Virus record (IMG/VR): IMGVR_UViG_3300029319_000001
DNA length: 64,000 nucleotides
Strand: one strand, 5' to 3'
Source: a virus
Taxonomy: Duplodnaviria > Caudoviricetes
Positions 15,644 through 35,058 of this stretch are shown one piece after another (positions within the stretch are counted from its first letter, which is position 1; each line of letters opens with the position of its first letter). The notes under the pieces were generated by a model. That model had not been told where the DNA came from, searched no databases, and worked only from the letters and a program-made list of their open reading frames with translations. The translations under genes were made by a program, and so were the position numbers.

Positions 15644-15811
15644 ATGCTATCAGCAAAACAAAGAATGAAACTTATTGACATTTGCGTTGAAATCGTAAAT
15701 GGAAGAACAGTTACTTTAGATGATATGATCTGGGCAGAGAAATTAGCAAAATATAATAGTCACGCATATAAAATGTTAAAGGAGTCAAGAGAGAATATTA
15801 AACCCCTGTAA
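15644..15811 (+). CDS. 55-aa protein, paralogue of 23161-23463 (absent from ORF track)
   Basis: MLSAKQRMKLIDICVEIVNGRTVTLDDMIWAEKLAK versus MLSTQYRLRLEAICRSIAAGTEVPLEDMIWAEKLSK. Confidence 0.75.
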   Translation: MLSAKQRMKLIDICVEIVNGRTVTLDDMIWAEKLAKYNSHAYKMLKESRENIKPL

Positions 15812-15814
15812 ACC

Positions 15815-15861
15815 GTATCAAAATATACGAGGTTGCATTATAAATAGTTATGTGTTAGAAT
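15815..15861 (+). promoter_or_regulatory. NtcA-like box, sigma70 promoter and overlapping T4 late promoter
   Basis: GTA-TCAAAATA-TAC 15815-28; TTGCAT 15833-38, 17 nt, TAGAAT 15856-61 with TGn; TATAAATA 15839-46. Confidence 0.65.
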
Positions 15862-15871
15862 TAACATACAG

Positions 15872-16104
15872 CGTTCATCCGATGCACAACCTCGCTCTTT
15901 TGGCATTGATCCTCGCTGAACATAACGCTTCCCACTGGGAAATGTCATGTGCAGAGTGGAACCAAAACAGAATTGAGATACTTACTAATAAGAATCTTAA
16001 CTCTGATGCTCAAGAGTACCTTATAGATTACTTTAGAACAAAAGTGCCAGAAGAAAATTGTGAAGCGTTTATCATCGGACGCAAGTAAGTCGCGGAACGG
16101 AGCG
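15872..16104 (+). ncRNA. Glutamine-II (Downstream-peptide)-like riboswitch 1 with an ORF in its P2 loop
   Basis: P1 CGTTC/GAACG; P2 TCCGATG 15878-84 / CATCGGA 16073-79; CGCA 16080-83; weak 3-bp pseudoknot CGC/GCG. Confidence 0.65.
15882..16088 (+). CDS. 68-aa riboswitch-embedded protein (hydrophobic N-terminus, two Cys)
   Basis: ATG lies in the P2 5' strand and TAA just after CGCA; MHNLALLALILAE...MSC...NC...IIGRK. Confidence 0.7.
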   Translation: MHNLALLALILAEHNASHWEMSCAEWNQNRIEILTNKNLNSDAQEYLIDYFRTKVPEENCEAFIIGRK

Positions 16105-16303
16105 TTCATCCTATGTACCACATTCTGCTTAGTCTAATAGCAATAGGAGCACCACTTGATTGTGACCATGCTGCTGAACTATTAGAAGATGTAACTAACA
16201 ACCCTAATAGATCTGAGAGATTGGAACTAACAAGAGTTATAGTTGCACATACTGATCCAGCATGTTTTCCAAAGGACGCAAACGACTAAAGGAACGGGCT
16301 TTA
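16103..16303 (+). ncRNA. Glutamine-II (Downstream-peptide)-like riboswitch 2 with an ORF in its P2 loop
   Basis: CGTTCA 16103-08; P2 TCCT/AGGA; CGCA 16277-80; GAACGGG 16292-98; pseudoknot TAAAG 16287-91 / CTTTA 16299-303; directly upstream of DUF4278 gene. Confidence 0.75.
16113..16289 (+). CDS. 58-aa riboswitch-embedded protein (absent from ORF track)
   Basis: MYHILLSLIAIGAPLDCDHAAELLEDVTNNPNRSERLELTRVIVAHTDPACFPKDAND; stop codon lies in the pseudoknot strand. Confidence 0.7.
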   Translation: MYHILLSLIAIGAPLDCDHAAELLEDVTNNPNRSERLELTRVIVAHTDPACFPKDAND

Positions 16304-16329
16304 AATCCAACTACTTTAGGAGAACTTAA

Positions 16330-16455
16330 ATGGCACAAGTCACTTACCGTGGTGTTGTCTATGACACCAACAACCGCCCAAATCAAGCAAAAACACAGAA
16401 AGTTACTTTAACTTATCGTGGAATAAAGACTGAAAAGGATCTTACTACTGCTTAA
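16330..16455 (+). CDS. DUF4278-family peptide, 41 aa (absent from ORF track)
   Basis: MAQVTYRGVVYD...LTYRGI has two YRG motifs; SD AGGAG 16318-22. Confidence 0.85.
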   Translation: MAQVTYRGVVYDTNNRPNQAKTQKVTLTYRGIKTEKDLTTA

Positions 16456-16478
16456 TCTGGACATCTTACACATTGATC

Positions 16479-16508
16479 AAAAAGAGGGTTACAGAAACCC
16501 TCTTTTTT
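16479..16508 (+). terminator. Intrinsic terminator, bidirectional-type
   Basis: AAAAAGAGGGTT-acaga-AACCCTCTTTTTT. Confidence 0.85.
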
Positions 16509-16527
16509 ATAAATTATATTAAAAGCT

Positions 16528-16692
16528 ATGGATCGCCAAGTTTTAAAAGGCATGGTTTTAATGCTCAAACAAGTTGTAACAGAATTGGAAGCAGAGGTTT
16601 TTTCTGATAAAGAAGCGTATGTTCCAAAACAACCAGCAACAATGAAACAAGATTATGAACTCTACGATGATGACGATGGATACTCAGATTAG
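16528..16692 (+). CDS. 54-aa acidic hypothetical protein
   Basis: MDRQVLKGMVLMLKQVVTELEAEVFSD...YDDDDGYSD. Confidence 0.65.
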   Translation: MDRQVLKGMVLMLKQVVTELEAEVFSDKEAYVPKQPATMKQDYELYDDDDGYSD

Positions 16693-34737: not shown

Positions 34738-34893
34738 ATGCTTCGTTTACTTAAGAATCCACTTGTTCTGATCAATGTCATGTTGATCGGATTTTTTATA
34801 TTTGTAGAGACAATGCATGTTAATTATCATAGGGGGTTGACACAGTGTGAGGAGTCTGCTATTATAAAAGAGTTGGACGCAACATGGGAGTGA
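34738..34893 (+). CDS. 51-aa membrane peptide overlapping the downstream promoter
   Basis: MLRLLKNPLVLINVMLIGFFIFVETMHVNYH. Confidence 0.45.
   Translation: MLRLLKNPLVLINVMLIGFFIFVETMHVNYHRGLTQCEESAIIKELDATWE
34837..34865 (+). promoter_or_regulatory. sigma70 promoter
   Basis: TTGACA-N17-TATTAT. Confidence 0.8.
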
Positions 34894-35058
34894 CTGAATA
34901 AACTTACTGGCAACTGCTGGTTAAGGTGATGAGACACAGGTGGTGCTGCTCCGAAAGGAGAACCGATCAACCAATCGGGTCTCAGGCAAGAATGTTTTTA
35001 CTACTGTAGTAATGCCCATTCTTTGTTGGTACACAGGAATCCAACCTCCCTCCTTTTT
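34872..35058 (+). ncRNA. Multi-stem structured RNA, probably the manA motif
   Basis: GGGAG/CTCCC, GAGAC/GTCTC, CTCC-GAAA-GGAG, CCGAT/ATCGG, AAGAATG/CATTCTT and GTTGG/CCAAC stems; family name recalled, not searched. Confidence 0.6.

Follow-up and report, generated by a model that had tools for sequence, protein, structure and literature searches.

Glutamine aptamers and related phage elements

Glutamine-II riboswitches (the Downstream-peptide motif, Rfam family RF01704) are known from marine Synechococcus and Prochlorococcus, as in the MED4 Yfr6/DUF4278 leader (PMC2864571, PMC6212724, PMC6698751), and the one preceding a Prochlorococcus DUF4278 gene is an ON switch (PMC6212724). In the crystal structure, P1 is a peripheral stem-loop outside the binding site, and all conserved nucleotides surround the ligand within a pseudoknot helix; with glutamine present, two separate pieces of RNA can reconstitute the aptamer (PMC6698751). 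Earlier work has established glutamine riboswitches, tandem arrangements of them, their association with DUF4278 and their occurrence in T4-like cyanophages (PMC2864571, PMC6212724, PMC9964418, PMC9602691). No more than two glutamine aptamers came to light in the cyanophage genomes surveyed in 2017, and the survey's conclusion was that riboswitches are seldom used by phages (PMC5473149). The locus considered here occupies positions 15815 to 16508 of a 64,000-nucleotide (nt) stretch, hereafter the window, of the virus record IMGVR_UViG_3300029319_000001, and appears to contain two tandem glutamine-type aptamers, each closing around a whole open reading frame (ORF), followed by a DUF4278 gene. 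This structural reading holds because a custom covariance model, covariation, compact alleles at the Rfam thresholds and coding evidence all bear it out, as the original prediction of two successive aptamers with an ORF-filled first hairpin had proposed. Judged from its sequence, the arrangement is genuine and widespread, and it is a form of a known riboswitch class that has not been reported before; full-text searches, in a literature from which many subscription papers were missing, found no gene described inside the hairpin of a glutamine aptamer or of any other aptamer.

The phage elements share with glutamine-II the succession of CGUUCA, hairpin, CGCA and GGAACGG, a P2 helix around the GGAACGG loop that ends at the Shine-Dalgarno sequence, a DUF4278 gene downstream, and an aptamer start within a few nt of the predicted 5′ end of the transcript. 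They differ in the loop of the first hairpin, which measures 140–230 nt and contains a gene instead of 4–10 nt, in core nucleotides that also supply the final codons and the stop, in the succession of two or three units in a row with spacers of 1–5 nt, and in a longer loop inside P2 with a small extra hairpin; the ORF-bearing copies, moreover, are undetected by the Rfam model. Glutamine-I (glnA RNA, RF01739), for which tandems are also known (PMC2864571), has the same binding-site nucleotides, with CGUUC/GAACG as the closing helix, and compact phage alleles pass its gathering score. The window cores (CGCAAGUAAGUCGC-GGAACGG and CGCAAACGACUAAAG-GAACGG), however, are devoid of the P3 hairpin and of the GGAAGUA E-loop three-way junction (ACGGAAGUA ... 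GAAGGAACG) and carry a P2 of the glutamine-II type, and an ORF-bearing hairpin is not described for glutamine-I.

Genes lodged in functional RNAs are familiar from the group I introns of T4-type phages, which house ORFs in peripheral loops, need long-range pairing across the ORF to fold, and may suffer interference between translation and RNA folding, the ORFs being present or absent among relatives. The likeness lies in a protein gene placed in a structurally tolerant loop of a functional RNA, whereas here the RNA is a small ligand-sensing aptamer, with neither ribozyme nor splicing, and the nested proteins are without endonuclease features. T4-type phages also reportedly carry mobile regulatory cassettes of the PeSL type (Arbiol et al. 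2010), in which an early promoter and a stem-loop flank small ORFan genes. Such cassettes resemble the present locus in their small genes without assigned function, in their setting in a hypervariable region, in the short conserved regulatory bounds that could serve as recombination anchors, and in the early promoter upstream with a palindrome around the −10 box; they differ in that the anchors here are the two mutually pairing halves of a metabolite-binding aptamer.

Two aptamers split by genes

Read directly from the window sequence, the region has the layout of a single transcription unit of a T4-like ocean cyanophage, with all its features on the + strand. Element 1 spans 15872–16100; the 5′ half of its aptamer (15872–15884) consists of CGUUCA (15872-77), the pseudoknot/P1 strand, and UCCGAUG (15878-84), and its 3′ half (16073–16100) of CAUCGGA (16073-79), the CGCA linker, AGUAAGUCGC and GGAACGG, a line that reads CATCGGA-CGCA-AGTAAGTCGC-GGAACGG in DNA, with the core CGCA...GGAACGG at 16080–16100. 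The hairpin loop between them is occupied by ORF1 (15882–16088, 68 amino acids). The CGTTCA of element 2 (16103–16297) starts 2 nt past aptamer 1, and here the 5′ half (16103–16115) comprises CGUUCA (16103-08) and UCCU (16109-12), the loop is filled by ORF2 (16113–16289, 58 amino acids), and the 3′ half (16273–16297, core 16277–16297) comprises AGGA (16273-76), CGCA, AACGA, CUAAAG and GAACGG, that is, AGGA-CGCA-AACGACTAAAG-GAACGG. The core halves lie 202 nt apart in element 1 and 168 nt apart in element 2, and the hairpin loops, of 190 and 160 nt respectively, are coding and outside the range described for the RF01704 family. The last codons of ORF1, ATC GGA CGC AAG TAA (IGRK and stop), and of ORF2, GAC GCA AAC GAC TAA (DAND and stop), are nucleotides of the aptamer core, the ORF2 stop codon UAA lying inside the P2 5′ strand CUAAAG, while the ORF1 start codon lies inside the hairpin strand UCCGAUG and that of ORF2 directly after UCCU. 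When the sequence was re-read, all the features named in the original prediction, including these shared start and stop positions, were found where it had placed them; its term P2 for the enlarged hairpin is correct in glutamine-I numbering, but the same hairpin is P1 in that of the glutamine-II crystal structure (PMC6698751).

Neither RF01704 nor RF01739 has a match in 15780–16540, either at the gathering threshold or at E values up to 10, and RF01739 has none in the whole 96-kb uncultivated viral record to which the window belongs; the window copies do not reach the RF01704 gathering threshold of 33 bits. Such silence is to be expected of models about 60 nt long, which are too short to bridge an insert of 200 nt, and it is read as reflecting the limited match length of the models, not the absence of aptamers. 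For a custom covariance model, element-1 copies from other loci were used, 52 of them compact and 16 ORF-bearing; the window was excluded, and the structure came from RNAalifold. Over both strands of the 64 kb it gave two matches only, at 15870–16100 (element 1, 52.1 bits, E 3.9e-12) and 16101–16297 (element 2, 19.2 bits, E 0.0044), both of full length and with the ORF aligned as an insert in the hairpin loop, and since it matches these two sites only, the pattern is more than chance. The proposal that the elements would be recognized once their loops were replaced is answered by this insert-tolerant model and by natural compact alleles with the same cores, which score 28.9–35.7 bits overall on RF01704. 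Element 1 of S-SSM4, compact (TCTTGTT-loop-AACAAGA) and with the core of the window copy, reaches 28.9 bits on RF01704 and 26.7 bits on RF01739, and compact copies from either slot in metagenomic viral contigs attain the gathering scores, with 35–44 bits on RF01739 and 34–36 bits on RF01704, an element 2 with a core identical to that of the window being among them.

The binding core is complete in both copies. The CGUUC(A) and GGAACGG strands are present in both elements and invariant in 31/31 aligned ORF-bearing relatives, and CGCA directly follows the hairpin (GGA-CGCA at 16077-83 and 16274-80), corresponding to C17, G18, C19 and A20 of the crystal structure, in which G18 takes part in a triple and C19:G41 form a long-range pair (PMC6698751). 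Every named glutamine contact (C1-A6, C17-A20 and G35-G41) is kept in both window copies, and from this fully conserved core we infer that both would bind glutamine.

Comparison of distinct ORF-bearing copies documents the pairing between the distant halves. At hairpin position 3, all of them have a pair, either C-G or U-A, position 4 occurs as U-A, A-U, C-G or G-C and is paired in 72% (element 1) and 99% (element 2), and the start-codon A is paired in 86–89%. Duplexes between true partners have mean energies of −8.1 and −9.9 kcal/mol in elements 1 and 2, compared with −4.7 and −7.2 kcal/mol when partners are shuffled, and none of 2000 shuffles reaches the observed energy, in a statistic that ignores shared ancestry. 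For 31 unedited full-length elements (about 230 nt), the RNAalifold consensus contains only CGUUC/GAACG and the long-range hairpin, with 7 and 12 double-sided changes at the two variable hairpin pairs, and no positionally conserved helices inside the ORF, though single inserts fold well. Covariation, proposed earlier as a check on the stems and the pseudoknot, is thus found for the first hairpin and for the P2 of element 2, and the pseudoknot strands are invariant. In the fold of the 643-nt transcript, the closing helix of element 1 has a probability of at least 0.97 for six of its seven pairs.

On the downstream side, CURAAG (the hexamer whose last base is the first G of GGAACGG) pairs with CUUYAG, which lies 3′ of element 2 and runs into GGAG; in the window, the CUUUAG strand and the Shine-Dalgarno GGAG of the DUF4278 gene occupy 16314–16322. 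Across 115 distinct loci, the variable pair is A-U in 36, G-C in 36, G-U in 41 and A-C in none, with about 11 A-C expected; the covariation is as strong in the expanded copies, and the helix is present in both the local and the full-length minimum-free-energy (MFE) folds. CURAAG/CUUYAG is the P2 helix of the glutamine-II fold. The glutamine-II layout attributed to element 2 therefore stands, with the correction that its presumed 3′ pseudoknot is this covarying helix, CUAAAG/CUUUAG, abutting the Shine-Dalgarno sequence. Element 2 ends 33 nt 5′ of the DUF4278 start codon, within the 5′ untranslated region of that gene (ORF3, 16330–16455), an IF17-like ORF of 41 amino acids with two TYRG motifs that matches Pfam PF14105 (E 1.7e-7, 32 bits, above the cut-off of 25.3) and phrog_5049. 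An intrinsic terminator hairpin with a U run (16479–16507; −14.8 kcal/mol, z −4.86) follows, so that the unit closes with a DUF4278 peptide and a strong terminator as had been described.

Two variants of this downstream side occur among related loci. After the GGAACGG of element 2 in L012, L018, L029, L048, L055, L062, L084, L099 and L113, an extra domain of about 35 nt (ACGGATCC-hairpin-GAAGGTT), resembling a partial glutamine-I junction, is interposed before the Shine-Dalgarno-proximal strand. In about half of the loci (e.g., L022, L040 and L071), the gene after element 2 encodes another small protein, beginning MNTL..I.KQI, instead of DUF4278, so that no fewer than two families of downstream genes are driven by the pair of aptamers.

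Nested genes, their alleles and their expression

Of the 131 expanded loops, 130 are filled by a reading frame whose ATG stands 9–13 nt beyond the C of CGTTCA and whose stop codon falls in the 3′ hairpin strand or at a set position of the aptamer core. ORF1 matches phrog_6471 (E 2.4e-28) and ORF2 phrog_504 (E 1.4e-7); their metagenomic homologues (124 and 129, respectively) include none with a name, and Pfam gave no match for either. The median ratio of nonsynonymous to synonymous substitution rates (dN/dS) is 0.30 in the ORF1 family and 0.55, a just moderately low value, in the ORF2 family, and two invariant cysteines, a hydrophobic N-terminus and the helix pattern are kept across nested proteins of 20–40% identity. 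The two families are distant paralogues according to hhalign (95.7% probability, E 9.7e-9), which suggests that the aptamer-plus-gene unit may have been duplicated as a whole. AlphaFold2 models show an N-terminal helix and, predicted with confidence, a two-helix hairpin at either end of which a cysteine lies, with a predicted local distance difference test (pLDDT) score of 85 for ORF1 and 78 for ORF2, and a poorly ordered C-terminal tail, the part encoded by aptamer nucleotides (pLDDT below 50 in the ORF2 tail); fold searches with the ORF1 model gave no informative match, with a best E value of 2.6 in PDB and uncharacterised proteins only in the AlphaFold DB. The conservation expected of the nested ORFs is thus observed, and on the strength of alignments and models they are real genes for paralogous two-cysteine helical proteins under purifying selection.

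The coding RNA itself favors closure in the computed folds. The mean closing-helix probability is 0.73 in element 1 and 0.77 in element 2 for the native sequences, falling to 0.34 and 0.43 when the order of the interior codons is shuffled, and the native value is the higher one in 37/39 and 82/89 loci, respectively. Mean MFE z-scores are −3.25 and −2.57, against −0.55 for a control of 80 ordinary coding segments, matched in length and drawn from the window, and pairing between the opening and closing portions of the ORF is twice as frequent in element 1 as in its shuffled versions. By these predictions, the nested coding RNA is unusually structured in a manner that favors closure of the aptamer.

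The locus matches 384 phage records and occurs on at least 120 viral contigs; the nearest isolates to the window are the Prochlorococcus myoviruses P-HM1, P-HM2 and MED4-213. A set of 125 loci was assembled from the 120 IMG/VR loci listed by a scan for the tandem-junction pattern (at least that many exist), four isolates and the window, and in this set the distance from CGTTCA to CGCA is bimodal, being either 4–47 nt or 138–234 nt. The commonest combination is a compact slot 1 with an expanded slot 2 (62 loci), followed by two expanded slots (29), two compact slots (19) and an expanded slot 1 with a compact slot 2 (10), one slot not being assignable in the remaining five; an ORF-bearing slot 2 is the majority state, found in 92 of the 121 loci in which its 3′ core was recognized. 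In two pairs of loci with near-identical flanks (L015/L050 and L070/L061), the element 1 slot differs by an exact swap between CGTTCATCC and GGACGCAAG, a plain short hairpin in one partner corresponding to a gene cassette of about 200 nt in its counterpart, which suggests recombination with the aptamer halves as homology arms. Cassette movement between slots is evidenced by L101, a triple tandem array with an element-1-type protein (ending in IIGRK) in slot 2 and a third, compact aptamer before the DUF4278 gene.

Outside viral collections, when 185,579 genomes of prokaryote species were scanned for the tandem junction plus ATG, 47 matches emerged, of which 43 were due to chance and four, all on phage-like contigs, were real. 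The sole "cyanobacterial" genome matched (L138; 193,981 bases, from a Synechococcus metagenome-assembled genome) has gp32, exonuclease, PhoH and ThyX beside the aptamers and is probably a phage genome binned with its host. The custom model found no match in 150 other genomes of the same family, a weak negative given the strict filters and the phage-specific model.

Upstream of the aptamers, the window has a predicted NtcA-type consensus box, GTA-N8-TAC (15815–15828), 5′ of a sigma-70-type promoter, TTGCAT, 17 nt, TGT-TAGAAT (15833–15861), which overlaps both a T4-late-type TATAAATA box (15839-46) and a palindrome around the −10 box that forms a small hairpin when folded. The promoter claimed in the original prediction can be read in the sequence, but it has no entry in a simple consensus scan, which omits it because the −35 is weak, and the start site is only predicted. 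At homologous loci, TTGAC-17-TATAAT stands at the same distance, ending 7–9 nt before CGTTCA, and the aptamer is therefore predicted to begin at about the first transcribed base of the early transcript; an exact GTAN8TAC is found at the equivalent place in 81/115 related loci. The conserved order upstream (L005-L124) is GTA-N8-TAC, about 8 nt, TTGAC(T) fused to a CTAAATA/TATAAATA late-type box, 17 nt and TATAAT, the last within a covarying palindrome such as GGTCTATAATAGACC or GTGTTAGTATTAACAC; a late transcript would have an additional 5′ hairpin.

In three metatranscriptome runs, contigs identical to the window span 15932–16595 at a depth of about 6–235, with 0–14 over the flanking genes; in one bin, the summed depth climbs to about 2500 through short pieces that related strains have in common with it. 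This step of 10- to 100-fold in contig depth relative to the flanks argues for a strongly transcribed unit, with the qualification that the contigs are unstranded and DNA carry-over is possible. The contigs of the RNA libraries end at 16462–16473 in two runs and read through in one. In the RNA runs X7, X14 and X17, some contigs pass from 16111/16116 straight to 16274 or have 171 other letters at that place; splicing or processing that skips 16116–16274 was rejected as the cause of such joints, which correspond to co-occurring strain variants with a compact hairpin or another cassette at slot 2. Elsewhere in the window, a full-length manA RNA (RF01745, 189 bits) lies at 34871–35055 on the + strand, and the same motif is found near the glutamine-aptamer cluster in P-SSM4 (L002 266-451) and in L067.

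Proposed ribosome-gated sensing and its rivals

The best explanation of the whole, with a probability of about 0.6, is that of ribosome-gated tandem glutamine aptamers with gene-sized hairpin loops. A loop of that size would be structurally tolerable because P1 is peripheral, the conserved nucleotides belong to the pseudoknot helix, and two pieces of RNA suffice to rebuild the aptamer (PMC6698751). The aptamer would form only if CGUUCA-UCCN pairs, across 170–200 nt of coding RNA, with NGGA-CGCA...GGAACGG; an initiating ribosome would cover CGUUCA-UCCN-AUG and a terminating one CGCA...GGAACGG, and with ribosome footprints on both halves, nested translation and the folded aptamer would therefore exclude each other on any given molecule. 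As the nested gene begins in the 5′ strand of the hairpin and ends in the linker or in P2, ribosomes could neither initiate nor terminate on it without melting the aptamer, and the closed, glutamine-stabilised aptamer would bury the nested start codon. The ribosome-coupled nitrogen sensor that has been proposed on these grounds thus depends on a mutual exclusion that the layout of the sequence would make geometrically forced. Aptamer 2 would retain the normal glutamine-II output, its P2 abutting the Shine-Dalgarno sequence of the DUF4278 gene, and the direction of regulation is proposed because the host switch before DUF4278 is an ON switch (PMC6212724): at high glutamine, the aptamers would close, the nested two-cysteine proteins would be repressed and the DUF4278 peptide would be translated, while at low glutamine, or under heavy nested ribosome traffic, the aptamers would remain open. 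The conserved halves would also double as homology arms for swaps between a plain hairpin and a gene cassette from one phage to another.

Aptamer 1 may act beyond its own nested gene, either through the junction hairpin GAACG-GAG-CGUUC or through a helix of 3 base pairs (bp) that shares CG with the next element. Over the 125 loci (16091–16104 in the window), the core type of element 1 tracks the base before the next CGTTCA, TCGC cores occurring with G (CGC/GCG) and CCGACTC and CCGACAC cores with T (CGA/TCG). A 3-bp P2 of aptamer 1 sharing CG with the pseudoknot strand of aptamer 2 would couple both sensors, as is weakly suggested by this pattern of about two lineages only.

Several observations weigh against ribosome-gated sensing. 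In addition to the Rfam silence, the shared ancestry behind the partner-shuffle statistics and the moderate constraint on the ORF2 family, the pseudoknot strands are invariant and hence without covariation, and the closing helix of element 2 is weak (4 bp, a mismatch and 2 bp), with a probability of about 0.16 in the full transcript and 0.71 in isolation. Aptamer 1 has no clear expression platform, with at most a 3-bp P2 that overlaps the next CGUUCA, the metatranscriptome contigs leave 15834–15927 uncovered and carry no strand information, and active nested translation might keep the aptamers permanently open in vivo.

In an unlikely rival, though the likeliest of the alternatives, the split halves are just cassette boundaries: gene cassettes would have entered riboswitch hairpins by recombination at the conserved cores as homology arms, and the aptamer would be dead wherever it holds an ORF, its helix serving a purpose apart from glutamine, for instance constitutive damping of nested translation or protection from RNase. 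The exact exchanges of hairpin for gene at the core boundaries in near-identical phages, the element-1-type ORF in slot 2 of L101, the RNA contigs with alternative cassettes at the same joints, the missing Rfam match and the lack of an evident platform for aptamer 1 would all suit it. Dead aptamers are difficult to reconcile, however, with glutamine-contacting nucleotides that are invariant in the expanded copies, including the non-coding CGUUCA 5′ of each ATG, with a closing helix that covaries as well as in compact copies, with a coding interior selected for closure-favoring structure, and with ORF-bearing alleles in 92/121 loci at slot 2 whose P2 covaries equally. Much less credible is an interpretation of the ORFs as untranslated and of the loops as structured non-coding hairpin expansions that merely happen to be open; the inserts are unusually structured RNA and neither nested ATG is preceded by a Shine-Dalgarno sequence in the window, but the loop-filling ATG-to-stop frames in 130/131 cases, the dN/dS values, the two invariant cysteines with a helix pattern conserved at 20–40% identity, the confident AlphaFold2 models and the relatedness of the two families as proteins leave this as the least probable of the alternatives.

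An interlaced, circularly permuted fold was also considered. In it, the functional aptamer would arise locally at the junction, where the 3′ half of element 1 would combine with the 5′ half of element 2 under closure by GAACG-GAG-CGUUC, and the outer halves would pair with each other to give one nested structure. GAACG and CGUUC are indeed 3 nt apart and form a hairpin in the local fold of 16073–16115, and the similarity of the 5′ strands (UCCG and UCCU) makes a 3-bp cross pairing always possible. Nevertheless, a 5′ half is better fitted by its own 3′ half than by that of its neighbour in 98/109 loci, including 26/26 with both slots expanded, the reverse holding in 4; position 4 pairs with its own strand in 28/39 and with the cross strand in 6/39, mean duplex energies are −8.0 kcal/mol (own) and −3.4 kcal/mol (cross), the junction hairpin has a probability of about 0.05 in the full transcript, and the 3′ strand of the compact S-SSM4 element 1 is unable to pair with the 5′ strand of element 2. 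The interlaced fold was rejected on the own-partner pairing, and it is very improbable, if slightly less so than untranslated loops.

Ribosome-gated sensing can be extended, tentatively and with rather less than even odds, to a two-output device in which closure by glutamine would turn the nested gene OFF and the downstream gene ON through P2 and the Shine-Dalgarno sequence, nested ribosomes would veto sensing, the coding RNA would be a strut joining the halves, and the halves would be recombination arms; the use of riboswitches by phages would then be greatly undercounted, since such copies evade covariance-model searches. Short picocyanobacterial versions of DUF4278 are without the C-terminal region that IF17 needs for binding glutamine synthetase (PMC6212724), and the window peptide has just 41 amino acids.

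Riboswitch aptamers have been treated as compact non-coding leaders, and here a binding core would be split by a gene, with its nucleotides doubling as codons, in a natural system where ribosome traffic and metabolite sensing would have to compete on the same RNA. The census of phage riboswitches would also shift, with most ORF-bearing copies being invisible to Rfam models, compared with the two aptamers of the 2017 survey (PMC5473149). The natural allele pairs, with a plain hairpin or a gene in the same slot, are ready-made experimental controls. Taken with the NtcA-type box and the IF17-like peptide, the glutamine aptamers suggest that cyanophages may read and manipulate the nitrogen status of their hosts during infection.

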